64,000 nt of DNA from an uncultured Methanoregulaceae archaeon (GCA_963701095.1 OY969564.1:2080001-2144000); one strand, 5' to 3'; shown: positions 1 to 32,155, counted from the stretch's first letter. The notes: a model not told the origin generated them from the letters alone. Numbers and translations are program-made.

Positions 1-1
1 A

Positions 2-205
2 GACGAACTCAAACGGCACGATCCTGTCATCCAGCGGGGCCGGAGCGGGGAACTGATTTCCGCTTTTAAAATCTTCTGGGACTCGCACCCCACCGAACAG
101 GTATTTTCCCGGCAGACCGACGGCTTGCTTTTCACGAACAGGATGGTTTATTACATGCATCTGCATCCCCTGCCGCTTCAGGAACAACCAAAGAAAGGGA
201 AGTGA
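2..205 (+). CDS. 3' end of a hypothetical viral protein (partial)
   Basis: Open frame from the window edge (DELKRHDPVIQ...KKGK*). Its stop overlaps the next GTG start (GTGA). Confidence 0.55.
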   Translation, partial: DELKRHDPVIQRGRSGELISAFKIFWDSHPTEQVFSRQTDGLLFTNRMVYYMHLHPLPLQEQPKKGK

Positions 206-534
206 GCTGTCTCGTGAGTTTCAATGCCGATGCCCAGACCCTTGCTGATAAATACGGTATGGCGGTTAAAGAGATCCGGCTTATCGGGAAAGACGGGAAA
301 CTATCTGATATCATAAAACCAGGTTATACGCCGAAAGGTTTTCTGACCATGGATTTCACGCGGATGCCGCTGAACAAGGATTTCTCTGATTTCACCGAAC
401 GGTATAGGACCACGCTTCAGGAAGTCCGCATTATCTACCTCAATGGATGCGGCGCTTCCCAGTTCTTTCCGGCAGGCACACCGGACAAGGTTGTATTTAA
501 CGCGAACATTCCTCCGGATGAGTTAAAACCGTAA
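202..534 (+). CDS. Hypothetical viral protein
   Basis: 110-aa ORF coupled to the upstream gene and preceding the terminase. Confidence 0.55.
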   Translation: MSCLVSFNADAQTLADKYGMAVKEIRLIGKDGKLSDIIKPGYTPKGFLTMDFTRMPLNKDFSDFTERYRTTLQEVRIIYLNGCGASQFFPAGTPDKVVFNANIPPDELKP

Positions 535-570
535 CGTAATCCGGCTCATTGTCCCCAGTGATTTTATTGA

Positions 571-2099
571 ATGGCAGCCCGTACGATGTCCGATTCTGAT
601 TATCAAAAATGCGTGACAGCTCAAACGAAGGGTATCCTTGTCAGTTCGTGCCGATGTTTTATCTTCCACATTTTTAATTATGTGATCGAACCACATCACG
701 AGAACATCCTCGCCCACGTTGAGAGCTACCCGTTGACCCTTGACCTTGCTCCGAGAGGGTCAGGGAAAAGCCGGATTGTAACGATAGGCTATGCGGCGTG
801 GCGGGCAATCGTGGACCCGGACATCCGTATCCTCATCCTCAGCGACACAGATGATCACGCAGTCCGGTTCCTCAATACCATAAAGACCGCCCTGCATCAG
901 CATCCTCTTATTAAACAGCATTTCGGCCCGGTCGAGGGCGATAAGTGGACGGATCACCAGATCGTTCTTGCCGGCAGAAAGAAGATCCTTACCGAAGCCA
1001 CGATTACCGCCTTGGGTGCATATTCCGGGGCGGTCACGTCAGGACACTATGACCTTATCATCTGCGATGACCTGGTGAACTTCGAGAACAGCCGGACAGA
1101 AGGTGGCCGGGCCCGGATGCTCGAATGGTTCAAACAGACCCTTCTGCCGACACTGATACCGGGGGAGAGCTGCACGTTGTCGGCACCCGGTACCATTTTC
1201 TCGATCTTTACCAGATCATGATTGACGAGCTCAAATACGATACCAAAATCCAGCGGGCAATCATCCAGACCGAAGACGGCGAACATTCGATCTGGGAAGA
1301 GTATATGCCGCTTCTTGACCGGTGCGATGCGGTGACCGGTAAAAAAACCGAGGGGCTCAAAACCATCCAGGAAAACCTGGGCCCGGTTGTGTTCAATCTC
1401 CAGTACCAGAACGATGCCGAACTCATGAAGAAAGGCAGTATCTTTGAATATGACTGGTTCCGCTGGTACGAGATGGAAACACGGGAAGATGGCAGCCTGT
1501 GGATTCTCCGGTCGGACATGGCGCCGGTCGCGGTCAGCAAACTTACGATCTATGCGGGAGTAGACCCAAGCATCGGAGAAGGTGACCAGAGTGATTTCTT
1601 CTCGGTCTGCGTGATAGGCGTCGACCGTTTCACGAAAGAGATCTTTGTGCTCGATATTTTCAAAGGCCGGCTTTCGTACGATAACCGGGCCCGGATCGTG
1701 GATGCGAAGTACCAGCAATGGCATCCGTCTATTATCGGCATAGAAGATGTGGCCTTCCAGAAGGAATTCGTCCAGAGGGTACGGCAGACATTCCCCTATA
1801 TCAGGGTCAAGGAGATAAAAACAACGAAAGATAAGGTCAGCCGGGCGTATGGCCGGAGTGGCCTCGTCCAGAATGGTAAAGTTTTCGTTAAGAAAGGGAT
1901 GGCTGATTTTGTTGAAGAATTGTGCATTATGCCGGACGGCGCCCACGATGACCAGTTCGACGCATTTGATTTTGCCGTCGCGGTATCCGAGTCTGCGCAG
2001 GGTGGTGCAAAGAGTACACCGCTCCCGGGTTCAGGGAAATGGACGGGCGGCATGAAAACCGGTGAATGTGAACCGATCTGGAAGCAATTGTACAGGTGA
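571..2099 (+). CDS. terL: Terminase large subunit (frameshift at ~1160-1165)
   Basis: Walker A APRGSGKS and Walker B DLIICDD in ORF 571-1221. VGTRYH, nuclease AGVDPS and HDDQFDA in ORF 1125-2099. One extra G in a G5 run joins them (LIPGGELHVVGTRY). Confidence 0.92.
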
Positions 2100-2102
2100 A
2101 CG

Positions 2103-3764
2103 ATGGGTATTCTGAATAAAGTGAAAAAAGCGACTGCGGCTGGTCTCGGCACATTCTCTCGTGTCATGAAGGCACCCAGCTACAGTGAAGAGATAGAAGC
2201 GGATCTTGCGTACCGGCGCCGTGTTGCACTGCGTAAAAGTAGCCGGTACTCTGATTCGCTCAACAAATACGAGGTCACATCCGTAGACCAGGCACGGGCA
2301 TTGAATATACGTGCCAACCAGCTCATGCATGACCCTATGCGACGGGCGATCTATTCGGTCAATTCCTACATGAACATCTTCGGGATTCCCCGCCCGACCT
2401 TCTGGAAAGCCGATAATGACCGCCTTGCCCGGAACGCCATCTATGCCGTATGCGAGAAACGGATTATGGATACGGTTGAGACGGTCGAATGGGATGTCAC
2501 CGATGCCAATAAGGAAAGCGTCCAATCAGCCGTCCAATTCCTTAAAAAACCCAACCCGCAGCAGACATTCCAGATCCTTCTTAAACAGACTATCCCGGAT
2601 CTCCTGCGCTACGATCAGGCGTGTTGGGTCAAGACCCGGTCGATTGCCGGTAAGATTCTCGAACTGAAAGCATACAGTGGTCCGGAATTCTGGATCGAGG
2701 TCGATAACCATTTCAATGAAATCATGGGGCAATACGGCCTTTCCTATTTTGGTCCCTGGTCACACGGGTATGTGAAACGGTACTGGCAGCATTCAAAACC
2801 CGGTATCTACATTCCTTTCGCGCCAAAAGATGTCTGTTTCCTGATGATGTATCCCCGTGCGGATTCTATTTACGGGACGGATTTCATCCAGCAGATCCGG
2901 TGGCAGCTCGAATACCTCATCGATAGCACCAAAGCCGCCGGGATGACCTTTGCGAACGGTGTTGGGCCCTCAATGGTATGGAAACATCCTGACCTTAACA
3001 GCATCGAACAGCTGGAAGAGCGTGGGATGGAAGTCGAGCTCGAAAACAAAGGCCCGGAGAATTTCGGCAATATCCTTCACCTTATCGGGCAGGAAGATAT
3101 CAGCACCATTTTCCCTGAGCTCATGAACATGCAATGGCTCGAAGGCCAGAAGTTGATCTCGTCGATTGTCTGGGCGATGTTCGGGTTTTCTGCGTCTGAA
3201 TTCACCGGGGACGATGTTAATCGTGCGACCGCTTATATCAACCAGAATATCACTAAAAGCAAGATGCTGGCTCCGCTTCTCCGGCATCTCGAAACAGTCA
3301 TCAACGATGAAGTCCTGCCCGAACTCGATGGCTATCAGGAAGGCTGGACGTTTGCGTTCAAACCGGTTATCGAACTCGACGATAAGATCAAGGAAATGCA
3401 ATATCTCCAGACGCAGGCCCAGGTCGTAAAATCATACGTGGATATGAATGTCCCATTGGAAGAGGCTATGCGGCTCGCGGAAGTCGAGGAAGAGCATATC
3501 ACTTCGGTTACAACCGCCATGAATACTGTGAATCAGAAGGATTCGATGGAAGCAGCATACCACCGATTGCTTCAGGCCAACAACCTGCCGCCCAATCCGG
3601 GAATAGCATCCGCACCAGATGAAACATACCAGAAGCCTCTTGCTGATCCCGGCGTAGCGCCACCATCGGGCCCACACCGGGAGGGATATCAGGGAATTGC
3701 CGAGACTGACAGTGGCAGACCGGAGGATGACGGGCAGACCAATAAGAAGCCTATCGGACGTTGA
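2103..3764 (+). CDS. Phage portal protein
   Basis: 553 aa directly after terL, with HK97-portal-like motifs (LKKPNPQQT, IYG, VNRATA, WTFAF). Confidence 0.85.
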   Translation: MGILNKVKKATAAGLGTFSRVMKAPSYSEEIEADLAYRRRVALRKSSRYSDSLNKYEVTSVDQARALNIRANQLMHDPMRRAIYSVNSYMNIFGIPRPTFWKADNDRLARNAIYAVCEKRIMDTVETVEWDVTDANKESVQSAVQFLKKPNPQQTFQILLKQTIPDLLRYDQACWVKTRSIAGKILELKAYSGPEFWIEVDNHFNEIMGQYGLSYFGPWSHGYVKRYWQHSKPGIYIPFAPKDVCFLMMYPRADSIYGTDFIQQIRWQLEYLIDSTKAAGMTFANGVGPSMVWKHPDLNSIEQLEERGMEVELENKGPENFGNILHLIGQEDISTIFPELMNMQWLEGQKLISSIVWAMFGFSASEFTGDDVNRATAYINQNITKSKMLAPLLRHLETVINDEVLPELDGYQEGWTFAFKPVIELDDKIKEMQYLQTQAQVVKSYVDMNVPLEEAMRLAEVEEEHITSVTTAMNTVNQKDSMEAAYHRLLQANNLPPNPGIASAPDETYQKPLADPGVAPPSGPHREGYQGIAETDSGRPEDDGQTNKKPIGR

Positions 3765-3902
3765 ACATATTGGGATTTTATGGGATTATAAATGGGTGCG
3801 AATTCGGCGAAATCTCAAGGTATGGGGGGATTAGGCTCCGTAGTTCGTTTTAATCACTCGTATCAGCTAAACTTATCTGATAGTTCATAATATTACTGTT
3901 CA

Positions 3903-6464
3903 ATGGTAGAGAATAAACCTGAAACTATAATAGAGACTTTTGAATCAAAGGTGAAAAAACTTGACGACACAATTACGGAAGATGTGACCGCATTAAAAGC
4001 AAATAAAAATCAGACTATAACCAAAATAACAAATATTAATGAAAAAATCAACTCCGAACACGTCCAATTTAAACAAGTCCTAATCAAAAACGGCGAAAAT
4101 TTTAAAATAGATCTTGGAAAAAGATATAATCTTTATCTTAAAAAGACCGCCTCTGTTAAAGAAAAACTCACAACGGTATCGACGCGACTCTTTAATTCTC
4201 AATACTTCGCAATTTGTGTTCTGTTACTAAGTATTATATTTTTTTTGACACATTTACCTTCGATTTCTGATGTATTTCAAAATTCAGTTATTAATGGGAT
4301 TATTCCGGTTTTACTTGTTTTCACTATTATCAGTTTTGTAATTTTCACTCGCGAAACGTTTAAAAAAATCAATGAAGTAAATCCTGAACCTATTGAGGAT
4401 TTAACTACGGATTTAAATGGCGTTGAATTTGAAGATGTGAGCGTTTATGATTTTAAGGAAGATATCATTGAACAAAAACGGAGCACAGATCAACTAATTT
4501 CTTCAGCACAATCGGCGTTAGATATCATCCTATATAAAATTCCTATGTACAAAGATTATGTTGAAGATGAACATTTTAGGAGAAAATGGGAACTTGGGTG
4601 TGATGAGTACCAGAATGCTTTGAAGTTTTTTGGCTTAAATTATAAGGTTCAATTTCAAAAACTTAAGGATAAGCCGAATATTGACTCAAAAAGAGTTGAT
4701 GATTCGATATTAGATTCACACATTCTTAGTGATGTTTCAATGACTCTGAACATATCGTCTGCAATTGTTCAGATCTTAGTTCAATATTATCGAGGGAACA
4801 ACGCTCAAATTCTCTGGGAGGAAATTAAAAAGGATACATACAAATTTCAGTTGTTATCTCATACGTTATACAACTCAAATCAGATAGATATCGATAGATT
4901 GAGATTATCTGAAACAGATTTTCAAAATATTATCTTAAAAACAAAAGAGTTCAGTATTAGCCAGATCTCTAAAAATTCATCATTATTTGTTCAAATAAAG
5001 TTAAAACTCGAAAATTATGAAAAAATATTAATTGAAAATGAGATACCGCTAGAAAAGACGACTGATTTTGATGAATTAATCAATTCAATTAATTTCAACC
5101 AGACCTTTGAAAAGAATTTTTTAAATGTACTCTCTCATAAAATCATTCCGATTCTCCCGGTCGAACAAACTCAAGCATACGAAAAAGCGATTATTGCAAT
5201 TTTGCTTAACGATGAAATACTATTCAAAGATATAGTATGTAAAGATGCTAAAGATGATGATACTGTTCTTGTTTTAATGACATATCACGAGATGTTGCGA
5301 GAAAGAAAAGAAAATAAGCAAGTATTCAAATTGAATGATTTATTAGTCAATTTGCATATATTGGAATCAACTAAAGAAAGAATTCAAACCGAAGTTGAAC
5401 TAAAGAATCGTTTTGTTTATTTCAAGAATGATTTGTCTCGTGGTTTTTGGTGGGATGACGGATTATCATTACAACGGAAAATGTTTGATGATCTAAAACA
5501 GGATTTCAGTCAAAAAATCGATAAATTAGATAGGTCTATAATTATTACAAAATTATTTGAAAAAACCTTTACAGAAATTAATATCAATACAGTTGATAAG
5601 GCCATTGATGCGAATTTATTTTCGACTTATCTAATACTCACAAGCGCCAGTAAAGGGCACCTACTTCCTTTTTTGGATCCAATTAGTATAAGAAATCCTG
5701 ATAAGACAAAAAAAGATTTTTCAGAATTAAAGACATACGAGAAAAAATATGGAATAACCTTAATAAAGGACGGTAAGCCGAAATATGATTTCACGAATTA
5801 TTCAACTAGGACAAGAATAGGTGTTCTCCCGCGAAATACAAATTTTTTAGCCTTCGTTCAAGAAATGAAAGATGATGTCAACAAAATTTTGCAAGCCGAA
5901 TCCCAATTTGCTGAAGAAGAAATGGAAGATATTGGATTGGCTATTATTCGCGTAACGCCATCAAAATATAGTTTCGGTTTACTTGATGATGAGATTGAGA
6001 AAAGCAGTAATGTAAGAACAAAAGATTTACATATTGCAAAAATTATCGCAATTTTAGCTAAAGATTATACTTCGAATTCGGAGCAATATCTTATGTCCGC
6101 ATTCGACGGAAAGATAAACCTAACAGAAATTTTTAATCAATTGTCAATCTTTGAATTGATTCCAGCAAAAGAAATGGATCTCTCTCCAGAATATGAAGGA
6201 TTTTTAAAAAGTGATAGCCTAAAAAAGGCTATTTTAGCTTCCCTAAAGAAAGAGGGGATATCCAGTATTAAGGTATTATCAAAAACCGTTAGAAGCAATA
6301 AAGAAAATCATATATTTTTGAAATCTATAATTAGCGAAGCAATTGTTGATGAATATTTTAAAAGAAAAGGTGTAACGATTCAAACGTCCCGATTGAATTT
6401 TTTAATGAGCGAATTAATGAAATCACTTGATTCCATTGCCGAGTTGATGGAAAATTTATCCTGA
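3903..6464 (+). CDS. Large AT-rich hypothetical protein (N-terminal coiled coil, two TM helices)
   Basis: 853-aa ORF with two hydrophobic segments near aa 100-150. No recognisable catalytic motif. Confidence 0.8.
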   Translation: MVENKPETIIETFESKVKKLDDTITEDVTALKANKNQTITKITNINEKINSEHVQFKQVLIKNGENFKIDLGKRYNLYLKKTASVKEKLTTVSTRLFNSQYFAICVLLLSIIFFLTHLPSISDVFQNSVINGIIPVLLVFTIISFVIFTRETFKKINEVNPEPIEDLTTDLNGVEFEDVSVYDFKEDIIEQKRSTDQLISSAQSALDIILYKIPMYKDYVEDEHFRRKWELGCDEYQNALKFFGLNYKVQFQKLKDKPNIDSKRVDDSILDSHILSDVSMTLNISSAIVQILVQYYRGNNAQILWEEIKKDTYKFQLLSHTLYNSNQIDIDRLRLSETDFQNIILKTKEFSISQISKNSSLFVQIKLKLENYEKILIENEIPLEKTTDFDELINSINFNQTFEKNFLNVLSHKIIPILPVEQTQAYEKAIIAILLNDEILFKDIVCKDAKDDDTVLVLMTYHEMLRERKENKQVFKLNDLLVNLHILESTKERIQTEVELKNRFVYFKNDLSRGFWWDDGLSLQRKMFDDLKQDFSQKIDKLDRSIIITKLFEKTFTEININTVDKAIDANLFSTYLILTSASKGHLLPFLDPISIRNPDKTKKDFSELKTYEKKYGITLIKDGKPKYDFTNYSTRTRIGVLPRNTNFLAFVQEMKDDVNKILQAESQFAEEEMEDIGLAIIRVTPSKYSFGLLDDEIEKSSNVRTKDLHIAKIIAILAKDYTSNSEQYLMSAFDGKINLTEIFNQLSIFELIPAKEMDLSPEYEGFLKSDSLKKAILASLKKEGISSIKVLSKTVRSNKENHIFLKSIISEAIVDEYFKRKGVTIQTSRLNFLMSELMKSLDSIAELMENLS

Positions 6465-6643
6465 TAGAATCTCCATATTTTGGGAAGTTTGAGGTTTTAA
6501 TATCAATATTTGGCTACAACCCTGTCGGAATTCAATGAAAAGTGATATCGTCGTAAGACGTCAATGATAACAAATTGAAAGTCCAAAAAGGCAATAGAAC
6601 CTTATTGATTTCCATCCATCTATCAACGTAACAAAAACATAAA

Positions 6644-9600
6644 ATGGAAAAGATAGATTTAACGGCAAACAAACTTCAAAATAACAATAGTCCACAGGGA
6701 GATATATCTTCAATGTCTAATGACCTGACCTTTATCACCAACGAAAATAACAGGACGTTATATGACCGGTTTAATACACTTATCAATAACACTTCTCTTT
6801 TTGATTGTCTTGTTGGGTATTTTTTCACAAGTGGTTTCAATAAAATATATCGTTCATTAGAGAATACAGAGAAGATTCGTATTCTCATTGGCATCAGCAC
6901 GAACCCACAGACGTATAAATTGATTCAAAATGCACAGCAACAGCAAAGACTGGTTTCCGATTATGAAGTAAAGGAAACCTATAGTCAATCTATTGTGCAG
7001 GAATTTGACGAGTCTCCAGATAATTCCGATGTTGAGACTGGCGCGAAAAAATTTGTTGACTGGATCCTTTCAAAAAAACTCGAAGTTCGTGCATATCCCA
7101 CGGAAAAAATTCACGCTAAAGTCTATATCATGACCTTTAAACAGGGTTCGGTTGATGTTGGCCGGGTTATCACAGGTTCAAGTAATTTCACAGAAGCAGG
7201 TTTACAGCACAATCTTGAATTTAATGTGGAACTGAAGGATCGCAGAGACTATGAATACGCCCTTGAAATGTTCAATAAATTGTGGGCCGAATCAGTGGAT
7301 GTCTCGGAGAAATATGTTGAGACGATCAAAACAAAAACTTGGCTGAATGATGAGATTAAACCCTATGAACTCTACCTGAAACTATTGTATGAATATTTCA
7401 AGGACCGTCTTCTCCTCGATAGTTACGAATTGGAACAGGGCATTATTCCTGACAACTTCATGGATCTCAAATATCAGCGAGATGCGGTTCAGGATGCCAA
7501 ACAGATCCTCGAATCATATGGCGGAGTTTTTATTTCTGATGTTGTCGGTCTTGGTAAAACCTACACGACAACGCTTCTTGCCCGAGAACTAGACGGCAGG
7601 TCTCTAGTAGTAGCCCCTCCCGGATTACTTGACCGGAATAACCCGGGTTCCTGGCCAAATGCATTTGGAGAATTCGGTGTCAGGCAGGGAGAATTTGAAT
7701 CAATCGGGAAGCTCGACTCAATAATTGAGAACGGGGTTGATCGTTTCAAGAATGTAATTATTGATGAATCACATGCATTCAGAAATGAAGAAACCCAGAG
7801 ATATGAAAAACTCGCCCAGATATGTAAGGGGAAACGGGTTATTCTCGTATCTGCCACACCGCTGAATAATACCCCCCAGGACATTGTTGCCCAAATCAAG
7901 CTCTTTCAGGATGGACACAAATCCACCCTACCTAATCCGATTGTGAAGGACCTTGATGCGTATTTTGGAAAGCTCCAAAGACGGCTTGACAACGTAAACC
8001 GGAAGGAAAATCCGAAAGAATACATCAAGATAATGCAAGAAAATTCTGCAGAAATCCGAAAAAATGTTCTTGATTATCTGATGGTGAGAAGGACTAGAAC
8101 CGTTATTGAAAAATATTACAAGAGCGATCTTCGGGTTCAGGGTCTGAAATTCCCCAAGGTCGACGATCCCAAACCCGTGTACTACAATTTTGAAAAAGAT
8201 GTTGAACTTGCATTTAATGAATCGTTGAAATTGATTACTAAATCTCTCAAGTACAGTCGATATACTCCCCTTTTATATCTTAAAAAGATTGACCAGCGCG
8301 AACGAATGGGTCAGATAAATATGGGAAGGTTCATGAAGGTCCTTCTTTTGAAAAGACTGGAGAGCAGTCAATATGCATTCAAGATGTCAATCGGCCGATT
8401 TATCCATTCATATGAACGGGTAATCGAAGAATATGAAAAAGGCTTTGTCTATGTCAGCCGAGATTATGCCCAGAAAATTTTTGATCTTCTTGAGAGCGGG
8501 AGTTATGAGATAATCGAGAAGATGATCGATGAAGATCGTGCTACAAAATATGCCATTGACCAGTTTGATGAATCGCTGATAAGTGATTTAAAAAGCGATC
8601 TCGATGTCCTGAAAAAAATTAGGGGATTGTGGGAAACGATCACTATTGATCCTAAACTTGAAGAGTTCAAGAGACTTCTTGCCAAAGATAAAATCCTGAA
8701 GGAAAACAAACTCCTGGTATTCACCGAAGCAATGGAAACGGCAGAGTACCTTGAGAAGAAACTCAAATCCGAAGCATTTTCTGGAGCTGGAGTACGGTAT
8801 TTCTCCGGTACTGAAGGAACGACCAACAGAAATGAAATCATCCGGAATTTTGATGCGACGTCGCGGAATCAAAGAGATGATTTCCGAATCCTGATAACAA
8901 CCGATGTTCTTTCCGAAGGAATGAACCTGAACCGGTCGAATGTAGTGATTAATTATGATATCCCCTGGAATCCGGTCCGGATGATGCAGCGGGTCGGTCG
9001 TATTAACCGCGTGGCTAAGCGATTGCCCTATGACACAATTCATACGTACAACTTTTTCCCGACTGGTAATATTGAAGAAGAGATCGGCCTGGAATCTGCA
9101 GCAGAAGCAAAAATAGAAGCATTTATCGAAATGCTGGGAGACGATGCCCCACTCCTTCTAGATGAGGAGGTAAAATCCCATGAATCACTATTCAAGAAAT
9201 TGAATTCCCGGGAAATCATTGTTGGTGAAGAAGAGGATGACCTGGAGCTTGCGTATCTTCAGGAAATCCGAAAAGTCAGGGATGAAGAAAAGGAATTATT
9301 TGATAAGATCAAGAAACTTCCAAAGAAGGCCCGTTCCTGCAAAAAATCTGATATTGATGGAGTTATCACATTTTTAAGACGCGGGGATATGAGTAAATTT
9401 TATCTTAACGATAAAAACTCAGTTAAAGAAGTTGATTTTGTTATCGCTGCAGGGCAGGCGAAAACCCAGAAAAATACAAAACGTTGTCCGCTTTCCGAAT
9501 CGTTCTACACATTACTCGAAGCAAACAAAAAAGCGTTTGATATTGTTTTTCATTTCGATGAACTGGGACTGGGGCATGCTGCAGCCAGTACTGCAGAGGG

Positions 9601-9889
9601 AAAAGTCGACCGACGACTTAGGGCCATAGACAAGAAGCCCCTGGTTGAAGAGGACGAGGAATATCTCAAACAGGTATTTGGTTTGATTGAACGTGGCGCT
9701 ATACCGAAAAATACGATCAAACGAATCTGGGATAAGATAAAGGATGAGGATAATTCTCTCAAAATCGTGTCAGTATTGAAACTCAATCTACCGGAAGCAT
9801 ATTTCTCGGAGACCTATTCGGTTGATAAAATGTCAAGGATGGGTAAAAAAGAAGTAATTCTTTCAATGGAGCTGGTATCACATGGATGA
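6644..9889 (+). CDS. PLD-nuclease domain fused to an SNF2-like SF2 helicase
   Basis: IHAKVY...GSSNFT (PLD-like), then DVVGLGKT, IIDESH, SATP, SEGMNL and QRVGRINR helicase motifs. Confidence 0.9.
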   Translation: MEKIDLTANKLQNNNSPQGDISSMSNDLTFITNENNRTLYDRFNTLINNTSLFDCLVGYFFTSGFNKIYRSLENTEKIRILIGISTNPQTYKLIQNAQQQQRLVSDYEVKETYSQSIVQEFDESPDNSDVETGAKKFVDWILSKKLEVRAYPTEKIHAKVYIMTFKQGSVDVGRVITGSSNFTEAGLQHNLEFNVELKDRRDYEYALEMFNKLWAESVDVSEKYVETIKTKTWLNDEIKPYELYLKLLYEYFKDRLLLDSYELEQGIIPDNFMDLKYQRDAVQDAKQILESYGGVFISDVVGLGKTYTTTLLARELDGRSLVVAPPGLLDRNNPGSWPNAFGEFGVRQGEFESIGKLDSIIENGVDRFKNVIIDESHAFRNEETQRYEKLAQICKGKRVILVSATPLNNTPQDIVAQIKLFQDGHKSTLPNPIVKDLDAYFGKLQRRLDNVNRKENPKEYIKIMQENSAEIRKNVLDYLMVRRTRTVIEKYYKSDLRVQGLKFPKVDDPKPVYYNFEKDVELAFNESLKLITKSLKYSRYTPLLYLKKIDQRERMGQINMGRFMKVLLLKRLESSQYAFKMSIGRFIHSYERVIEEYEKGFVYVSRDYAQKIFDLLESGSYEIIEKMIDEDRATKYAIDQFDESLISDLKSDLDVLKKIRGLWETITIDPKLEEFKRLLAKDKILKENKLLVFTEAMETAEYLEKKLKSEAFSGAGVRYFSGTEGTTNRNEIIRNFDATSRNQRDDFRILITTDVLSEGMNLNRSNVVINYDIPWNPVRMMQRVGRINRVAKRLPYDTIHTYNFFPTGNIEEEIGLESAAEAKIEAFIEMLGDDAPLLLDEEVKSHESLFKKLNSREIIVGEEEDDLELAYLQEIRKVRDEEKELFDKIKKLPKKARSCKKSDIDGVITFLRRGDMSKFYLNDKNSVKEVDFVIAAGQAKTQKNTKRCPLSESFYTLLEANKKAFDIVFHFDELGLGHAAASTAEGKVDRRLRAIDKKPLVEEDEEYLKQVFGLIERGAIPKNTIKRIWDKIKDEDNSLKIVSVLKLNLPEAYFSETYSVDKMSRMGKKEVILSMELVSHG

Positions 9890-13365: not shown

Positions 13366-13420
13366 TTCAAATTTTTTGCGGTATCGTTCATCATCTCCCT
13401 GAATCCATTATCTCTTCAGA

Positions 13421-17698: not shown

Positions 17699-17711
17699 GG
17701 TGGCCTGAACC

Positions 17712-18472: not shown

Positions 18473-18483
18473 ACGAGGTTCCC

Positions 18484-22321: not shown

Positions 22322-22352
22322 TTGGCGCTGGACGAGCACTTTTATACATTTT

Positions 22353-23606: not shown

Positions 23607-23727
23607 TAAATCACATGGGAACTTCAGTTGTCTATATGATTAATATTTTGTTTTTTAATTGATTCTCTTTATAGAATACATAGAACCCGATATACGAAGT
23701 CGTTTAATTTCTTTAAAGATCCCCACA

Positions 23728-23770
23728 TTGCCCTATATTATGAATTATCTTTAGATTCGGTAACAGGATG
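23728..23770 (+). promoter_or_regulatory. Putative viral promoter, copy 3 (GCCCTATATTATGAATT...AGATTCGGTAA)
   Basis: TATA-like box begins at 23734, 34 nt before the tape measure ATG. Confidence 0.65.
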
Positions 23771-24823
23771 CCGGATTATAACGTGAAAGTTGTCGTGGAC
23801 GTGCAGGGCAAGAAAGTCATGGATGAGCTAGCGAAAAGCGCTGGCGACAAATCCAAATCCCTCAGCGGTGCCATCGGTTCTGCGACTGCTGATGTTTCGA
23901 AAGGCAAAGATATCGGATCGGTTTTTGCGACATTGATTAAGGCGATCATGCCTCTCACAGCGGTTTTAGGGGTGGGGGTCGGTTTACTGACTTTAGCAGT
24001 TGGCAATTCCAAAATCCTTAATTCAATCTTTGGAACTATCGGGAAACTGCTCGGCTTCCTCGTCGATATTATCCTGTTACCCTTAATGCCGTTCTTTATC
24101 CAGCTCGTGAATTTCATGTACCAGATGATCCTCGCGTTCCGGGCATTTACCAAGAACCTGAGCGGGCAGGGTGCGATTGCATTCCTTGTCAGTATGGCCC
24201 TTCTTGGACCAGCCGGATGGCTTGAGTCTCTCATTATCGCATGGCTCGCCAGTTCTAACAGCCCCCTCAAAGGTGCGCTTAATTTCACTCTCGGAATCCT
24301 GCAAGGTGTCGGCGGCTGGCTCTGGTCGGTCGGTCAATGGATCTGGGGTGCTGGGGGCAAAGTAGTGAACAGCGCGATATCGGTTTTAATCAATATCGGT
24401 TCCGCGATCACCGGGTTTTTGAGCGGCATTACGTCGCTGGGGTCAACCATCCTGCAATGGATCTTTGGCCTTGTCACCCCGCAAAACACCTCGCTCACCT
24501 TAAACTTCATCGCAAACCTCGTAGGCGATGCATGGACTACGCTTTCCAATCTTGCACATGCCGGGGTCTCGTTCATTTCAAACGGGCTCAGCCAACTCGG
24601 CCTGAACCTCCCGTCGCTTGATTCCGGGGGTGCCGTCATGCAGACCGGTGTTGCCGTAGTGCACAAGGGAGAGACGTACAGCGGCGTGAATGGGAACGTG
24701 AACACCGGCGGTGGAGGAAACACGTATAATTTCTATTACCAGGGGACGTTCAAATCGGACAGCGACCTTTTCAACTGGTTCATGCAGCAGATGCGCCAAC
24801 AGGGCCGGGGGCTTAAACTGTGA
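23768..24823 (+). CDS. Tape measure protein (short)
   Basis: Ala/Gly/Leu-rich amphipathic helices with a C-terminal LPSLDSGGAV..TG.AVVHKGE motif typical of TMP ends. Confidence 0.75.
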   Translation: MPDYNVKVVVDVQGKKVMDELAKSAGDKSKSLSGAIGSATADVSKGKDIGSVFATLIKAIMPLTAVLGVGVGLLTLAVGNSKILNSIFGTIGKLLGFLVDIILLPLMPFFIQLVNFMYQMILAFRAFTKNLSGQGAIAFLVSMALLGPAGWLESLIIAWLASSNSPLKGALNFTLGILQGVGGWLWSVGQWIWGAGGKVVNSAISVLINIGSAITGFLSGITSLGSTILQWIFGLVTPQNTSLTLNFIANLVGDAWTTLSNLAHAGVSFISNGLSQLGLNLPSLDSGGAVMQTGVAVVHKGETYSGVNGNVNTGGGGNTYNFYYQGTFKSDSDLFNWFMQQMRQQGRGLKL

Positions 24824-25248
24824 CGTATGTCTGCACGCTCCGGAATTCTACCGGTTCCGTTGTGGTGAATTTCAATAATACCTATTATGAGGGCGACGGC
24901 CCGCAGCTGTCGCTGGTCAATGATGTCGCAGTCCTGGACGCCCCGTATGATGCCAACGGGAATACCCAAAGCCTCCTGACCGATCTCAAATACTGCACCG
25001 ATCAGTGGACGCTCCGGGGACAATTCAAAGACGGCCTGGGAAACCTTGACTGGAACACACCGGGCTCGACCAATGCGGAAAAACTGCTTGCATTATTCAA
25101 GCTCGAGATTGTTCCCTTAACGCTCACGTGGCCGGTAGCGACAAAAACCCAGACCTGCACAATATTCCGGCTCACTATCGGGGAACAAGGCGCCTATGGG
25201 AATACGGTGACCTTTGATATCGGGTTACAGATGGTGGCAGGGACGTAA
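24820..25248 (+). CDS. Putative distal tail protein
   Basis: 142 aa, overlapping the TMP stop. Called on synteny. Confidence 0.55.
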   Translation: MTYVCTLRNSTGSVVVNFNNTYYEGDGPQLSLVNDVAVLDAPYDANGNTQSLLTDLKYCTDQWTLRGQFKDGLGNLDWNTPGSTNAEKLLALFKLEIVPLTLTWPVATKTQTCTIFRLTIGEQGAYGNTVTFDIGLQMVAGT

Positions 25249-25263
25249 ATTGAGGGAATTTCT

Positions 25264-27839
25264 ATGACGATCACGGTTAATTTTGACAGTTTACCTAGGA
25301 CGATCTATGCTGAACCGGGAAGTACAGTAAGTGTCCGGTGTGTGGACCAGAGCGCGACAACCAACGGCGTTATCAATCAATGGCGGTGGTGGCTGAATAA
25401 TCCGCAGATATTCACGACAGATAGTTCAGGTACGAATCTCCGGATAACCGGTGGAAGCACCTATTTTGCGGTCGGGGACACGGTTATTCTCAGCACGACC
25501 AACGCACTCCCGAGCGGGTTAAATTTCCTCAGTACAGCCTACTATGTCAAAACGGCGAGCTATTACGGGATCACCCTTTCCCTTACTCCGGGGGGTTCAA
25601 CGGTAACGTACACTCCAGGTACAGGATCGGGTACCTTTCTCGTCCAGATGGGGAGCAATTTACAGAATCCCACTTTTCCGTTTAGGAATATTGTGCCGGG
25701 AACCGTCGGGGTCTCACTGAGCGTGAATGATTCCGGGGGTACCGGATGGACTACGCTCACGCAATCAGCGCAGATCGTTATCCAGACCGGAGACTATGCA
25801 CCACCTTCACACCTTTCCGCATGCGGGAATATCTCCATTTTTGTGTACGAGCGGTCATCACAACCCTCTCCGAAATCGACCTGCATCTGCCGGGGCCCGA
25901 CCACGGCAAGCAACCTCTTTTTCCAAAACCTCTGGATGGAGGGTGCGATCACCAAAGCCGGAAGGGCTACCTTCGATATCGTGAACGGCGGGAACGCGAC
26001 AGCCAATGAGATCGACCTTTTTGAGTCCACTACGGTAGGCACCTACAAGAATATCGCCGTGGTGGCAGGATTTGATGTCATCTGGTCCGGGAAGATCACG
26101 GTTGCGACAAAAGAGCTTAAGAGCCAACCGGGATCTGCCAAACAACGGGCGGTGTATCACTGCCAGGCCGATTCTGATATTTACAAACTCCAGGACTGGA
26201 ATATCGCTACCCCGGCAACCGTGACCGGCCAGACTCCAGGGCAGATTGTCGCGGATATCCTTGCCCTTAATCCCGGAGAACCGGATTTCATCGGGGGATA
26301 CCGGGGCGGTTTTATCGATAAATCCGGTCTGAAAATGCAGATGGCACTGACGAGTGCCGATAAATATACCGCATTCTCCCAGCTTATGGCTGCCGTCGAT
26401 TTTGATTGGCGGACCCGCATGGAAACGATGCTGTTCCAGTACGCAACCTTCGATGGAACGGGTACGGTAACGATCGCTTCCGCCGGCCTTACTGCGGGAG
26501 CACTGGTCGGGCAATGGCTTTTATTCCCGACCAATTATTGTCGCAGCGCAGGAGCATTTTCAAACCAGAATATGATTGGAATTCTGTCGTGGGGTATTAT
26601 CACCGCAAATACGGCAACGACTATTACCGCGACACTCACTAATCCTGCTGCCATCCCGCTTGGCAACGATAATTGCCTTGTTGTGAACGTCCCGCGTCTG
26701 GACTTTTCCAGCGACCTTACTGAACCTACTGCCGTCAGGACATTCACCAATAATGTGGATGCGGTGCAGTTCGCCGACTCTTCTAACAAAACCAATTTGT
26801 TCACGAAAGTTACCGTGCAGGGTCAGGATGCAATTACCGGGCTGATGACCTCGGCAAGTATTGCCGCCGTTACACCATTTAATAATGCAAAATCCTCGTT
26901 CACCAACGCCTCTTTTATCACCTATAAGACGATGGGGTATGTCTACAGTCAGGACGGTACCTATCTCTATTTAGAGGGTTGGGATTGGGCGTTGCCTATC
27001 ACCGGGGATACCTATATCACCGTTCTCTTTCCGAGTACAAGTGGCGCAGGTGGGGGTTCAGCTAAAATATCTGCAACATCGCAGATTGTGATGGGGAACC
27101 AGAAAGTGACCAAAGTTTCCTTTACTGCCAACTGGGGCTTCCAGGTATCTCCAGGTACCATTGCGTTTTTATCAGGATATTTCCCCAACTATGCCACAGG
27201 ATCGTTTGGACTTTGTATTTTCGTGAAAAGTTACGCGGATCTCGGGTTTACTATCAACGGACCTAACCCTACCGTGAAAATCGGTGACGATATATTGACC
27301 TCAGTTACCGGACCGGGTGCGGTACAAACGCACTGTATGGCGATTATATCGTTCTGACTGAGCCCGTTGCAACAGCATTACCGATTGCGCATTATCCCGG
27401 GTGTATTGTCTGGAATGCATCGGCATATAATGAGACAAGCGCTGCAGCAGGTTCCCCGGTGCAAGTTCACGGGATTATAAATAACAATCTTGCGGGAGCC
27501 GCAGGGACATCCAAGTCAAATTTTGAAGTATTGGCCTGTAGTACGCTTATCCAGGGATGCGAGTATTACCAGCAATCTACAATGGTCGTCGGTTTTTTCA
27601 ATTATACTCTGTTCCGTGTTCGGGATGGCGCCCAGATTATGACCTATGCATTTATCCGGGAGGGCCAACGAATCACTATTATTCCCTACACCGGTGCAAC
27701 CCCGGTAGATCGCCAGGTTATTATCTGGGATTTCGACGCGAATATGATGCAGGTCTCTCTCACTCTCGGCGATTACCCCCATTCTGTGTACAACACGATT
27801 GCCAAGACCCTTTCAGCGACCCAGAACCCGGTAAATTGA
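25264..27839 (+). CDS. Tail-tip / hub / adhesin protein with a PKD-like N-terminus (frameshift at ~27320)
   Basis: Thr/Gly-rich 697-aa ORF. An alternative frame open from ~27320 (GTNALYGDYIVL...) runs into ORF 27459-27839. Confidence 0.65.
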
Positions 27840-27881
27840 CCGGAAAAATCTATTTATCATCGTTTTTTAAATACTGAAGTA

Positions 27882-28226
27882 ATGGTCAGAAGGTCAAAAA
27901 AATTTAGATATTCGTTAAATAATAGTCAGTTATGTCCTATGGGAATTGTAGATTCCTGGGATTTCCTTCTTATTCACCCTCTTGTAAAAAAATATCTTCT
28001 GGAACAAAAAAGCCAAGACCCTCAAAGGAGAATGCCGTATAGTGTATCGACGACAAAGGTTCTGGATTATATTGATGAAAATCCCACCATGAAAAGCCAC
28101 CGGATTGTCAGGATGGAATGGTGCATAAACCATTCCCTGCGGGAATTCGGTTATCGTAAGGACTCTGTGGCGGGTCGGTCGTACTCGCTGACGAATATCG
28201 GCGTGATTGTACCGGTAACCGCATAA
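27882..28226 (+). CDS. Hypothetical protein
   Basis: 114-aa basic ORF after the tail module. Confidence 0.5.
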   Translation: MVRRSKKFRYSLNNSQLCPMGIVDSWDFLLIHPLVKKYLLEQKSQDPQRRMPYSVSTTKVLDYIDENPTMKSHRIVRMEWCINHSLREFGYRKDSVAGRSYSLTNIGVIVPVTA

Positions 28227-28277: not shown

Positions 28278-28787
28278 TTACTTTTTTCTTTTCTGAAAAA
28301 CCTTTGAAATATTTCGATTCAATGCTTCAACTGCATCTTCGGAAAGAGGCAAATTTATTTCTGTTACAATTTCATCTTCGGTTTCCGAATCAATCAAACG
28401 TCGTGATGTAATTTTAAATTTTGCAGTTCCATGAAATTCTCTTTTTTGTCTGGATTTTAGTATAGTTATCATAAGTTCGACAACGGATTTCACTAAGACA
28501 ATTGATGCTGTACCTAACCCGAGGTAAATAATAATTTCTGGACCACTTTCATGACATTCCAAAACAAATTTTTCATTATTCTGTTCGATTAAGACTGCAC
28601 CTTCATTTTTAATCGGCCCAGCTGGAAAGATGAACTCATTTATTTCGCCCCATGTTCCCGGCCAATGATCAAAGCAACAACAACCACCGTTCGAGGGAGA
28701 AATTTTTATGGAAATGTAATCTGTGTAATTTTCAGGTGTATTCAACAATTGGATCGCGATATCCAAATTTCTTTTTAGGCTAGCCAT
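28278..28787 (-). CDS. Hypothetical AT-rich cargo protein
   Basis: 169 aa with GGCCCFDH and LECHESGPE motifs and one hydrophobic helix. Confidence 0.65.
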   Translation of the reverse strand: MASLKRNLDIAIQLLNTPENYTDYISIKISPSNGGCCCFDHWPGTWGEINEFIFPAGPIKNEGAVLIEQNNEKFVLECHESGPEIIIYLGLGTASIVLVKSVVELMITILKSRQKREFHGTAKFKITSRRLIDSETEDEIVTEINLPLSEDAVEALNRNISKVFQKRKK

Positions 28788-28857: not shown

Positions 28858-29530
28858 TTAGAATAGCCCCTTTAATCTCTCAATCAAATGCTCATCATCG
28901 GCTTCCGGCTTGTTCACCCGTTCCGACACCGGGTACGCTTCCATTCTCTCGGCCGGATACTGCGCAAGGATCCGGTTGATATCTTCAGAAGGAATCGGAT
29001 CGCGGGATGACCATTGTATCTCGTCATCCTGCCGGAGAATTACTGGCATCCGGTCATGGAGAGGGGCAACCAATTCGTTGGCAGCGGTCGTGATGATCGT
29101 ATACGTCTGGAGGATTGTTCCCGCAGGATTGCTCCAGATATCGTAAAGCCCGGCAAAGCTGAAAAACCGGGTCGTCTTTTACGTGGATATAGAAAGGAAC
29201 TTTGTGACCGGCCTCTTTTTTCCATTCAAAGAACCCGCTCGCTGGCACGAGACAGCGTCGTGATTTCAGGAGATCCCGGAACATCGGTTTCTCTGTGAGA
29301 TTTTCTGACCTGGCATTGATGGGCCGGTGCGTCTCCGTAATGTCTTTTGCCCAGTGCGGAACAAGCCCCCACTGCATCATTACTACTTCTGCCCGCTCGT
29401 GAGCAACGATAACCGGATTCGTGCTGCCGGGGGCAATATTGAAATGAGACCGGAAACCGAGGGTAGGATCTAGGAGTCGGAATCTCCCGCAGAGATCATC
29501 AATACACCAAAGCGAGTACCGGCCACACAT
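28858..29530 (-). CDS. SRAP / HMCES-family abasic-site processing protein (frameshift at ~29160)
   Basis: Starts MCGRY. Contains WGLVPHW, INARSE and GFFEW, with HDRMPVIL in the second frame. Confidence 0.92.
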
Positions 29531-29575
29531 GATAACCGTTCATTCTCTTACGGGATTAAAAACAATTGGACTTTG

Positions 29576-29890
29576 CTAAGCTTGTTTAAGAAGGAAGAAC
29601 TCCCGCCTTTTCTTCCAATCACGTGCAAGATTTTTGAACTTTTTTTTGCGCTCAGGGTCTTTAATCTGTTTGATAAAATCCGGACAGGTTACACGGTCCA
29701 TAGAATCGCATACCCGTTGATAATCTCGTTTTACCTCCTCCCATTTACGAAGCAGGGCATCCTGTTTACGTTGGAGCTCATCCAATTCTTCTCGGCGTTG
29801 CTTCTGTTCTGATTGGAGGTAAAGAAGTTGGAAGTCATGTAAAGCCAATTCTCTTCGAATCTCCGGAAAGTTATAATCGACCAATATCAC
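29576..29890 (-). CDS. Small coiled-coil hypothetical protein
   Basis: 104-aa ORF co-oriented with and upstream of SRAP. Confidence 0.55.
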   Translation of the reverse strand: MILVDYNFPEIRRELALHDFQLLYLQSEQKQRREELDELQRKQDALLRKWEEVKRDYQRVCDSMDRVTCPDFIKQIKDPERKKKFKNLARDWKKRREFFLLKQA

Positions 29891-30044
29891 TCACCCGAAA
29901 CAATCTTTTCTTTTATTGTAAATACAACAAACACTTTCACACCGCTCAGGGCCGGATCTTTATTCCCTTCAGTGCAGCAGGGATCCGGTGCTATGCAAAT
30001 CAAGATCCTCGACCACCCGTACCATGACACACAGGAGAAGGATC

Positions 30045-31989
30045 GTGTGGATCCTTGACTCCGCGTACCGGGACCGTGGTATTGATCTGTGGACAAATGA
30101 CGGTACCGTAACAAAAACCCATTACGATTACCAGCCGCCTTTTTACGTCCACTTCCACGACCCTCACGCTCACCATGAGATGATCGAAGCACTGGAAGAG
30201 CGGTACGGTGCGGAGGAGTGCACCATCAAAACCATCTTTGGCGAACTCCCCGGGTTTGCGGTCACTGCAGGCCGGGATGTGGCCGAAGCGATAGAACGTC
30301 AGGCACAGTTCGACATCGATATCTTCAACGTGGACGTGCGCCGGGACCAGCGGTTCATGGCCGAACGTGGAATCTTCCCGTGTGAGGGTGATGGTGATGA
30401 CCGGTTTTCCCCGGAGATTACACATAATCTTACCGTAATGGAGATTAGCATCCAGGGCAACCCGGCACTCTCCTCGCAGTTCACGGAAATTGAAGTAAAG
30501 GGGATCCACACAGAACGGCTCACCGGTGAAAACCAGGAAGTCCTAGCGGCACTCTTCGGGCTCGTCAGTTCTCTTGACCCTGAGGTAATCCTCATGCCGG
30601 ATGCCGATACCTGGATGCCGAAGATCCGGAAACTGGCAAAACAATATGATCTGGTCATGCCTTTCTCGCGGAACGGCAAGTACCGGCAGATGGATGCCCG
30701 CTCGTACTGGAGTTACGGCAGAATGGAACACAAGGAATCCGCACTCATTCCGGACGGGCGTATCCTGATCGATACCGAACAATCGTTCGTGTACCGTGAA
30801 GGCGGTTTGGAAGCAGGACCTCATGGCCGCCCGGCTTGCAGGGCTCTCGCCGAACTTAGCGTCCCGGTTCACGCCCGGAACGCTCATCAGCAGCTACGAA
30901 GTCTACGAAGCAGTAAAACAAGGGATTGCAGTGCCGTTCCGCAAAAGGGATCCGGAGCAGAGCCGTAAGCTTTCAGTTCTACAGGCCGCCGACCGGGGCG
31001 GTATGATGTATCAGCCGAAGCCAGGGACGTTTGAGAATGTTGAGGAGATCGATTACACCTCCATGTATCCCTCCATCATCGTAAAAGCGAACCTCTCTCC
31101 GGAAACGGTCGGGCATCAGGAGCGTGTGGGATTCCTTCCCGCTGTGCTCAAGCCGCTGCTCGATCTCCGTATCAAGACCAAGCGACTCAAGAAGACCGAT
31201 CCACGGTTTGCCGGTACGGATGCAATTCTCAAGTGGATGCTCGTCACCTGCTTTGGGTACACAGGCTACAAGAATGCAAAGTTCGGTAGAATCGAAGTGC
31301 ATGAAGGGATCACAGGCCGTTCCAGGGAAATCTTGATACAGACCAAGGATATTGCCGAGAAGATGGATTTCCGGGTACTGCACGGGATTGTTGACTGCCT
31401 CTGGGTACAGGGATCACCGATCAAAGCACTCAAGGAACGGGTCGAGCGTGAAACCGATCTGCTCCTTGAGGTTGACCACTTCGATTGGATCGTCTTCCTC
31501 CCTCTCGCGGATGGTTTTGGAGCCTATAACCGGTATTACGGCAGGCAACCAGATGGCAGTATCAAGGTTCGGGGGATTGCCGCCAGAAGGCATGATACGG
31601 CGGAATACGTGCGCGAGATGCAGCGCCGGATGCTGGATGTCATGGCCCGGGCAAAAACAATCACAGAACTCAAAGCGACACAGGATGAAGTAACAGCGAT
31701 TTACCGGGAAACGATAAACAACCTACCGGCAGCGGACCCAAAGGAAATGATGATCAACCGCCGGATTAGCCGGCTCACATATGCGCACCGGTGCATTGAA
31801 GGTGCAGCAGTTCAGGCGCATCGGGATCATGGGATGGAGATTGCTCCCGGCATGAAGATCCAGTACGTGGTGACCGATGCTCAGCGATACAAGGTGGAAC
31901 CTTCTTGGCGCGCGTCATCGTTTGATCTTGGGTATTACAGGGAATTGATCGATAAGGCATATGCTGAGATCAAGTTTGCATTTTCCTAA
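30045..31989 (+). CDS. polB2: Archaeal family B DNA polymerase, PolB2 type (frameshift at ~30815)
   Basis: [10 protein letters not shown] and [10 protein letters not shown] motifs. Motif C reads HGIVDCL instead of YGDTDS, and the exonuclease region is degenerate. Confidence 0.85.
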
Positions 31990-32155
31990 ATGGCTCCGTA
32001 AAGTCTGTGGGTGGCGACATATTTCCCTCGACGAAGGTTTAATCCAACCACCCGAAGACTTGACAGATCCCGCAATATTCATTATCACTCTGAACCAGTA
32101 TTCAACATGTCATTTTGGAATTACCTGAACAATTCGTTAAAAGTAGGGAGAAAGA

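Follow-up and report, generated by a model that had tools for sequence, protein, structure and literature searches.

We identified an integrated tailed provirus in an uncultured Methanoregulaceae archaeon by analyzing a 64,000-nucleotide stretch of its chromosome (hereafter the window; G000:C1:2,080,001-2,144,000), which belongs to the single-contig genome G000 of 2,625,686 bp with an estimated completeness of 86%. We propose, with a probability of about 0.85, that positions 1-32,173 of the window (+ strand) are part of a temperate tailed provirus in a Methanoregula chromosome. The element measures 42,977 bp from the start of the left attachment (attL) core to the start of the right one (attR); its right three-quarters lie in the window, and its left 10.8 kb lie upstream, from the attL core at L002:9184-9196 through the gene for the terminase small subunit (TerS) at L002:19434-19952 (L002 is the 20 kb upstream of the window; L-numbers denote loci or contigs, and G-numbers genomes, that were compared). 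An initial annotation of the window had proposed an integrated tailed provirus at 1-32,000; the provirus itself was borne out by an integrase, an att repeat, an empty site in genome G004 and virus gene families, and the region does lie in the element, but the coordinates had to be replaced by a span that begins 10.8 kb upstream of the window and ends at 32,173.

The evidence for integration came from both ends of the element. A tyrosine integrase with a C-terminal Zn ribbon is encoded at L002:9254-10459 (PF00589; phrog_1, E = 4e-24), and the exact 13-mer CTCATCATCTAAA occurs once in L002, as the attL core, and once in the window, as the identical attR core (32,161-32,173, + strand); thus, both the integrase and the attL that the initial annotation had advised looking for upstream were found there. 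In a search allowing up to one mismatch, the sole further copy of the core was in host DNA at 35,728, and no shared word of at least 14 nt was found between the two boundary regions, the 13-mer being the only one recovered. Comparison of the 50 kb around the element with the corresponding locus of G004, which belongs to the same genus, by tblastx showed collinearity up to L002:~9209 and again from window position ~32148. In a three-way alignment the G004 site was uninterrupted; the left junction of G000 agrees with it as far as CTCATCATCTAAA, agreement is taken up again at the right junction starting with these 13 bases, and G004 synteny connects L002:~9196 straight to window position ~32161. 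The integration target is an intergenic spacer without a tRNA gene, between a signal-peptide-peptidase gene (L002:8239-9141, - strand), the last host gene before the element, and a small open reading frame (ORF) of 111 aa upstream of FEN1; host genes start at 32,156, with FEN1 at 32,531-33,579. The element therefore has an integrase and direct repeats on both flanks, and a relative retains the empty site, as expected of an integrated provirus. The host is a Methanoregula methanogen, in agreement with the Methanomicrobiales-like methanogen that had been suggested: mcrA is encoded in G000, and relatives of the capsid gene were located in Methanoregula sp. and Methanoregulaceae genomes, in addition to two contigs filed under bacterial metagenome-assembled genomes (MAGs). 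Methanoregula species rank among the main sources of methane in peat and in the soils of wetlands.

In a genome assembled as one contig, with frequent 1-nt indel errors and an estimated completeness of 86%, an assembly chimera has to be considered, as does a contaminating viral contig joined to the methanogen chromosome. We regard either as very improbable, because both flanks are syntenic with one continuous G004 locus and the break is base-exact at the shared 13-bp repeat, the junctions of the largest insertion in the element are bridged by short-read contigs (see below), related proviruses are present in other Methanoregulaceae genomes, and the early genes are 77-83% identical at the DNA level to two other loci on the same chromosome. 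A chimeric join at 28-32 kb in particular, which the initial annotation had itself named as fatal to its proposal, is excluded by the empty G004 site together with the att repeat.

From Pfam and PHROG scans of 38 ORFs, and from the genes upstream of the window, we recovered a virion backbone with a GC content of 50-53% (genome, 48.1%) in the order TerS, terminase large subunit (TerL), portal, protease-scaffold, SU10-type capsid, connectors, tube, chaperone pair, tape measure and tail tip, with small + strand ORFs in series, the last ending at ~28.2 kb. Between TerS and TerL, a 110-aa ORF without a family match (202-534, +) has a counterpart of 41% identity in the provirus of G254. TerL (571-2099, +) appears in the assembly as two overlapping ORFs, an ATPase (571-1221) and a nuclease (1125-2099), which matched phrog_38 (E = 1.2e-32 and 2.4e-39) and Terminase_6C (42.6 bits against a cut-off of 22.6); in the G254 provirus it is one 508-aa ORF, and with the frame restored by the short-read contigs the gene carries the ATPase and RNaseH-like nuclease domains of a Caudoviricetes terminase. 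The portal (553 aa; 2103-3764, +), likewise of a Caudoviricetes kind, matched PF04860 (66.9 bits against a cut-off of 39.1) and phrog_2662 (E = 1.5e-23), and is the shortest of its lineage, the relatives having portals of 633-1071 aa with variable C-terminal extensions. The putative prohead protease-scaffold gene (14648-15830, +) reads through into the capsid gene in the assembly; its ORF has no direct family match, and its G079 homologue (31% identity) carries matches to Peptidase_S78 (21.2 bits against a cut-off of 21) and phrog_80 (E = 1.6e-10). In the resulting 833-aa ORF (14648-17149), the C-terminal half matched SU10_MCP (PF17236; 39.1 bits against a cut-off of 24.1) and corresponds to a major capsid protein of 439 aa of the SU10/DUF5309 type (15830-17149, +); at the level of the sequence family this points to an HK97-fold capsid, since we take the SU10/DUF5309 family to belong to the HK97-fold lineage. 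Head-completion and connector genes collinear with those of relatives occupy 17159-20351 on the + strand (17159-17698, 18370-19203, 19194-19469, 19451-19915 and 19902-20351), the second being a head-tail adaptor of phrog_442.

The tail genes were assigned partly by position. The putative tail tube (20369-20824, +) is conserved in relatives, and its structural model, mostly beta strand, was of low confidence and unusable (predicted local distance difference test, pLDDT, 49.3). At the tail-assembly-chaperone position stand two overlapping ORFs (20834-21289 and 21039-21431; 20834-21431 overall, +) offset by +1, and the same +1 offset was seen in L024 and L025 from the coordinates of high-scoring segment pairs. 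The tail module proper (23768-27357, +) comprises genes for a tape-measure-like protein (351 aa), a protein of 142 aa and a tail-tip or fibre protein of 697 aa; the tape-measure matches are weak (E = 0.0016 for phrog_15478 here; E = 3e-5 for the homologue in L025). The virion block closes with two conserved small genes (126 and 114 aa; 27459-28226, +), and none of the ORFs scanned matched a sheath family. The virion would be siphovirus-like. A "complete siphovirus-style morphogenesis module" had been described for this region; a tailed-virus module is indeed present on the + strand, but its completeness was not borne out, as cargo islands interrupt it and a MuF-like gene was not detected.

TerL, a Type IIG gene, SRAP, PolB2, a Dam-like gene and the host FEN1 all appeared to be frameshifted. 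We aligned Logan contigs of run X1, which holds 96% of the query words, to positions 1-15,500 of the window. The ends of the X1 contigs carry what we take to be Nextera adapter sequence, so that X1 is a short-read library; it probably derives from the source sample. The X1 contigs have one more G after position 1160 (a G5 run becoming G6), which restores TerL, and one base fewer at 11835, which joins the split Type IIG ORFs into one. Thus, both frameshifts in the tested 15.5 kb were contradicted and are assembly indels, and a programmed frameshift in TerL was rejected. At the large island described below (island 1), X1 contigs run through both the left junction (record 3, 3647-6239) and the right one (record 7, 13397-14653), and the island is therefore no misjoin. 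The protease-scaffold/capsid "fusion" is almost certainly a third assembly error: the two are separate genes in L019, L020, L025, L026, L027, G079 and G295; an alternative G000 protease frame ends in ...SNFEKLFHGR and a stop, comparable with the ...SNFEKIYGNR and stop of L026; the protease end shows a TAATG stop-start overlap with the capsid start MQMSAIVK; and a separately called 439-aa capsid protein, 100% identical, was found on another contig in the protein collection. A true fusion was rejected on the grounds of the separate genes in relatives and this separate call. With the assembly errors removed, the core packaging and head genes are intact. The apparent pseudogenes of G000 are to a large extent homopolymer errors, and calls of gene decay in this genome are untrustworthy without polishing.

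Similar irregularities were observed in host DNA. FEN1 (XPG_N, XPG_I; 32531-33579) is present as two overlapping ORFs with a 1-nt shift near 32,908, and its G004 orthologue is in one frame; the split is probably another assembly indel. At 57141-57209 (- strand), ARAGORN called a tRNA of undetermined type with the 2-base anticodon "cc", which may be a normal tRNA that lacks one anticodon-loop base through homopolymer errors.

The provirus differs from its backbone composition in three low-GC islands, one upstream of the window that holds a PDC-M19-like gene pair (36.0% GC) and two in the window (36.9% each); in all, ~15.5 kb of the 43 kb is low-GC cargo, ~13 kb of it within the window. Island 1 (10.8 kb; 3790-14608, +) lies between the portal and the protease. 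Its first gene encodes an 853-aa orphan with a long N-terminal helix (3903-6464, +) and no match in Pfam, PHROG or PADLOC; six homologues were found, none of them named, with none in the IMG/VR scan and no usable match in the ESM Atlas, and its AlphaFold model was poor (pLDDT 54.7; predicted template modelling score 0.32). A PLD(HKD)-SNF2 helicase of 1081 aa follows (6644-9889, +; PLDc_2, SNF2-rel_dom and Helicase_C), which matched phrog_26785 (E = 6e-226) and, in PADLOC, HKD+Snf2 (E = 2e-46) and DrmD (E = 7e-37). The Type IIG restriction-modification enzyme (9882-13365, +) is split in the assembly (9882-11846 and 11932-13365) and becomes a single gene of ~1,130 aa after correction; it matched the PADLOC model REase_MTase_IIG (PDLC03596) with 505 bits over positions 1-397 of 1148 and with 395 bits over positions 698-1144, also carries Eco57I and TaqI_C, and is predicted to unite endonuclease, N6-adenine methylase and target-recognition domains in one polypeptide, the arrangement of Type IIG enzymes. 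Two small ORFs (126 and 175 aa; 13461-14454, +) form the right edge. Searches for repeats flanking island 1 gave only short matches of chance quality, and no transposase or integrase was found in it in the Pfam, PHROG and PADLOC scans. A 287-bp segment in the 126-aa ORF (13558-13844) has an 83%-identical copy at G000:C1:683,440-683,725, and pieces of it also occur in three unrelated metagenome runs.

The DrmD-like SNF2 helicase with a PLD domain and the Eco57I-type N6-adenine methylase of island 1 recall DISARM. However, neither DrmA nor DrmB was the best match of any of the 13 proteins scanned, DrmA appearing only as a weaker match of the helicase; the methylase scores far better as Type IIG (505 and 395 bits) than as DrmMI (E = 2.5e-14), and the neighbouring 853-aa protein has no PADLOC match. 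A DISARM label was therefore rejected, its DrmA/DrmB core not having been found and its methylase being of Type IIG. Island 3 (21441-23760, genes on both strands) separates the chaperone pair from the tape-measure-like gene and encodes a 255-aa protein of phrog_23933 (21554-22321, +) and a 417-aa membrane protein with multiple Zn ribbons (22353-23606, -); in L020/L024 and L025 the island is absent and the chaperone pair adjoins the tape-measure-like gene. As judged from their family names, the islands probably act as lysogenic-conversion or defence cargo that would protect the lysogen.

Island 1 occupies an interval that is variable throughout the lineage. At this position the relatives have MuF preceded by 4-10 kb of unrelated genes, which encode fibre-like proteins (G254 and L019), an HNH protein (L024), ParB-like and DUF6011 proteins (G079) and a reverse transcriptase (L026). 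A MuF-like gene stands directly upstream of the protease in seven of the nine relatives examined (G254, L019, L020/L024, L025, L026, G079 and L027), including all five close ones, and was not detected in L022 and L035. In our reading, island 1 fills this hypervariable portal-MuF locus and has displaced the MuF-like gene from it. Like the defence hotspots of bacterial prophages, this locus is a fixed position of the backbone that holds unrelated, compositionally foreign genes in different relatives; it differs from them in its archaeal host, in lying inside the head operon and in that its contents in the relatives are not only defence systems. The P2 and P4 hotspots are examples of such defence hotspots in bacterial temperate phages. 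In the wetland runs X2 and X3, contigs match the TerL-portal region and the protease start with 90-95% identity, homology resuming at 14,608, 40 nt before the protease start; island 1 itself is not covered in these runs, no contig joins across it, and they were therefore not used as evidence for relatives without it. In L026 (1957-7544), we also observed an 800-aa portal with a C-terminal ADP-ribosyltransferase domain, and the 471-aa reverse transcriptase just upstream of MuF, which may be a diversity-generating or a defence retroelement.

Several points weigh against the interpretation proposed here. The att core is short, and a single 13-nt match is about what chance would give for the regions compared; what lends it weight is that it stands exactly at the two breaks in synteny. 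X1, being probably from the source sample, represents a second technology and not an independent sample; beyond the read-tested stretch, the assembly splits SRAP, PolB2 and the Dam-like gene; and the 1-nt insertion in PolB2, being common to two paralogues, may be genuine. The siphovirus-like tail is read from gene order, weak tape-measure matches and the lack of a sheath match, and the defence roles from family names, PDC-M19 being itself a candidate system. The 853-aa orphan occurs on two metagenome contigs in low-GC surroundings without an adjacent helicase, and a conserved three-gene cassette in island 1 was rejected for this reason. Finally, no MuF-like gene was found in the provirus (tblastn, E<=1e-3) or in the genome G000 (PF04233), and with MuF missing the module may not build heads.

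The last point bears on whether the element is still a virus. Head assembly may be compromised in the provirus, which would then persist chiefly as a carrier of defence genes; in its strongest form, this would be a defective, domesticated provirus in which island 1 disabled head morphogenesis and which persists as a defence island without infectious particles. The loss of MuF, which stands directly upstream of the protease in seven relatives, and the minimal portal (553 aa against 633-1071 aa) argue against particle formation, and ~15.5 of the 43 kb being low-GC cargo and the several accessory genes split in the assembly point in the same direction. On the other hand, both breaks that could be tested (TerL and Type IIG) were assembly errors; particle formation is favoured by the TerS, TerL, portal, protease, capsid and tail genes, which are intact and, like the connectors, full length and collinear with those of relatives; the integrase and both att cores are intact; and MuF was undetected in two of nine relatives, the more distant L022 and L035, so that the wider group may include members without MuF. 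Some phages can dispense with MuF-type proteins. We give a domesticated remnant somewhat less than an even chance, and put a functional, inducible virus at about even odds.

The relationships of this provirus were examined in deposited phages, genomes and metagenomes. Among 50,697 GenBank phage records searched by tblastn, the capsid ORF had no match at E<=1e-3, the portal matched four records of two Arthrobacter phages with ~23% identity, and the nuclease half of TerL matched 33 records, all below 60% identity and at ~22-29% among the matches listed. Clustering with a described virus, which would have contradicted the initial annotation, was thus not observed. Portal and TerL matched bacterial phages only, the presence of Blf4 among the records searched not being confirmed. 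Of the viruses of Methanomicrobiales, Methanoculleus virus Blf4 alone has been isolated according to PMC9796341. Blf4 is likewise a siphovirus with a host in this order but, unlike the provirus, lytic. Literature searches of open-access text turned up no description of a capsid- and integrase-bearing provirus in Methanoregula.

Metagenomic relatives were more numerous. Capsid relatives were present in 3 of 300 other genomes of the order; an alignment-based capsid search returned five loci in species-representative genomes and 25 loci in IMG/VR, three of them at 68-76% identity and the rest at 37-47%, whereas a single-protein scan of IMG/VR with the 833-aa capsid ORF had found no relative. The protein collection held 103 capsid relatives at E<=1e-10 with up to 86% identity, almost all of them metagenomic and none virus-named. 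Thus, the novelty that had been claimed stood insofar as there is no cultured or classified relative, but the lineage is not unsampled, given the 25 IMG/VR contigs and 103 metagenomic proteins with related capsids. The match to the capsid family of phage SU10 (PF17236/DUF5309) covers only the C-terminal portion of that profile (positions 48-272 of 292), and many relatives carry the same precomputed domain. SU10 is a bacterial podovirus, and the tail genes of the provirus look siphovirus-like instead.

The closest relatives obtained, the IMG/VR and MAG contigs L020/L024, L025, L026 and L019 and the provirus of G254, follow the gene order of the backbone at 46-78% amino-acid identity; in L020/L024, L025, L026 and G254 this synteny reaches from TerL through the final virion gene. 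L024 and L020, which gave identical matches, are probably the same virus. They share the order from TerS/TerL to the two small genes, with a variable portal-MuF block in all, yet their nucleotide similarity to the provirus (identity multiplied by aligned contig fraction) is only 0.13-0.29, far below the 70% at which the practice of the International Committee on Taxonomy of Viruses places the genus line. Unlike the provirus they keep MuF and are without islands 1 and 3, they have no SRAP-PolB2 arm within the stretch compared, and none is named or classified. We conclude that the lineage has been repeatedly sampled but is uncultured and unclassified, and that the provirus is a new species- or genus-level member of it with complete ends. 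A base-exact, full-length provirus with att sites and an empty site would serve as a reference for a lineage known so far from metagenome fragments only. It also raises the possibility that a fixed, hypervariable slot within the head operon of archaeal tailed viruses carries restriction-modification and other defence genes. L020 and L022 carry clear relatives of the module and are filed under Syntrophaceae and Gammaproteobacteria MAGs; both are probably misbinned viral contigs. G000 contains one CRISPR (clustered regularly interspaced short palindromic repeats) array of 60 repeats (147,510-151,417), and when at least the spacer length minus 6 bases had to align, its 59 spacers gave no match to the provirus, to other parts of the genome or to the relatives retrieved, so that the spacer check that had been recommended for the provirus came out negative (0/59).

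The right arm of the provirus, beyond the virion block, contains a 169-aa ORF without a match (28278-28787, -), an HMCES/YedK-type SRAP gene (28858-29530, -; PF02586, E = 3.5e-39; phrog_1599 positions 1-129 and 160-223), which is in two frames in the assembly (29054-29530 and 28858-29073), small ORFs without a family match at 29576-30192 on the strand opposite to PolB2, and a PolB2-like family B polymerase homologue (29988-31989, +) that forms two ORFs through a 1-nt insertion near 30,815, an insertion common to the paralogue at 154 kb. The initial annotation had taken this PolB for a housekeeping neighbour; this did not hold, because 29,988-31,989 lies inside the inserted DNA and host genes are found only from 32,156. 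Moreover, the canonical host PolB is encoded at 958 kb, and the PolB-like gene of the window is therefore not the host replicase. G000 has four PolB2-like copies: the one at 602 kb is syntenic with another species (G100), and the other three are 87-92% identical to each other; the right arm is ~89% DNA-identical to the copies at 154 kb and 846 kb. The PolB2 type was present in 113 of 120 other Methanoregulaceae genomes searched, mostly as a single copy.

Comparison of the intact PolB2 paralogue with 2jgu_A, a Pyrococcus-type PolB, showed DTD replaced by IVD and NS by TC, the DIE residues opposite non-acidic residues and the aspartate of motif A kept; we take these to be motif C (DTD), motif B (NS), Exo I (DIE) and motif A in the usual nomenclature. 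With catalytic residues replaced in both the exonuclease and the polymerase motifs, the protein resembles the archaeal PolB2 "inactivated" group, also in its ~670 aa and its degenerate Exo I and motif C (PMC4104785), and the host-like PolB2 of the provirus is probably inactive. As far as the accessible part of that paper goes, PolB2 is mainly vertically inherited and linked to arCOG07300 and an inactive RadA, and provirus-borne PolB2 goes unmentioned (PMC4104785). G000 differs in holding three extra copies, two of which adjoin the attR of delimited proviruses and are paired with SRAP.

The second of these proviruses, element B, spans ~62 kb (G000:C1:786,613-848,790) at tRNA-Thr(GGT), where a direct repeat of 24 nt bounds it. 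It encodes a TerS and a TerL of its own and contains several low-GC islands; its structural genes bear no relation to those of the window provirus, and its right end carries SRAP, in one frame, and then PolB2, 284 nt from the att repeat. A further region, G000:C1:98,000-156,100 (element A), shares early genes at amino-acid identities of 50-88%, and its PolB2 copy has the 1-nt insertion as well; no convincing att repeat was found for it and the CRISPR array lies inside its span, for which reasons it is not claimed as one provirus. In G004, a block of ~12 kb (L054:4378-16678) between host response-regulator and RuBisCO-like genes encodes an integrase, a PolB2-like gene, an MvaI/BcnI endonuclease with two methylases, and SRAP, and looks like a small integrative element with the same PolB2-SRAP pair.

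In L027, an integrase directly follows the homologue of the gene at 27,882-28,226, with no SRAP or PolB2 between, and together with the integrase-PolB2-SRAP block of G004 this layout makes the right arm look exchangeable. It is a tentative and rather unlikely extension of this that the insert is a composite, in which a tailed provirus (integrase to 27,882-28,226) merged with a SRAP-PolB2 integrative module (28.2-32.2 kb). The L027 layout would fit such a merger, as would the lack of any PolB2 in the 52 kb around the G079 provirus, the ~12-kb G004 block that pairs PolB2 with its own integrase, restriction-modification system and SRAP, and the ~89% identity of the arm to the 154-kb and 846-kb copies, the structural genes of whose regions are unrelated. 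However, no third att core was found inside the element at up to one mismatch, the sole other match being that in host DNA at 35,728; the 43 kb contains a single integrase; and in element B the arm again lies between the virion genes and attR, behaving as a provirus part.

We propose that the tyrosine integrase would insert the circular genome by site-specific recombination of an attP with the 13-bp core, that PolB2 and the integrase would flank attP in the circular form, and that the backbone encodes a standard head-and-tail assembly line; the Type IIG enzyme, the helicase and the PDC-M19-like pair might be expressed from the lysogen and exclude other viruses. More speculatively, and at well below even odds, Methanoregula proviruses might mobilise a host-derived degenerate PolB2 plus SRAP module beside attP that is exchanged among co-resident proviruses and small integrative elements, which would make the patchiness of PolB2 partly virus-driven, with the portal-MuF interval as the archaeal counterpart of prophage defence hotspots. 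If this were true, the PolB2-SRAP module would target replication and repair in the host or in rivals, for instance through abasic-site tolerance or as a decoy, and provirus copies of an "inactivated" PolB2 with SRAP could help to reveal PolB2 function.

The left arm, upstream of the window, contains after the integrase a DUF1064 resolvase-like gene, assigned by family match, and a Dam-like methylase gene split in the assembly, and then the low-GC island with the PDC-M19-like pair (L002:13915-15827, -). Both components of this candidate system, whose function is a predicted one, are adjacent in PADLOC matches (PDC-M19B, L002:13915-14724, E = 1.5e-66; PDC-M19A, L002:14784-15827, E = 2.6e-25), and the pair is accordingly a putative PDC-M19 member. 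A tRNA-Thr(TGT) at L002:17533-17608 (Rfam, 48.7 bits) is followed by one or more ParB-like genes, and an ABC-ATPase/GNAT fusion (phrog_11143) precedes TerS. The identity of 77-83% between the early genes and two other loci of the G000 chromosome shows recombination among co-resident elements. The provirus tRNA-Thr(TGT) is loosely similar to the host tRNA-Thr(TGT) at 2,424,817 (46 matching columns).

In the host DNA to the right of the provirus, a cluster at 47318-53538 (- strand) encodes a 1128-aa protein with repeated IPT/TIG domains, a 473-aa protein of no assigned family, and two proteins with archaeal type IV pilin N-termini, one of which has a TIG domain; it is probably a surface or adhesion filament locus, as judged from these domains.

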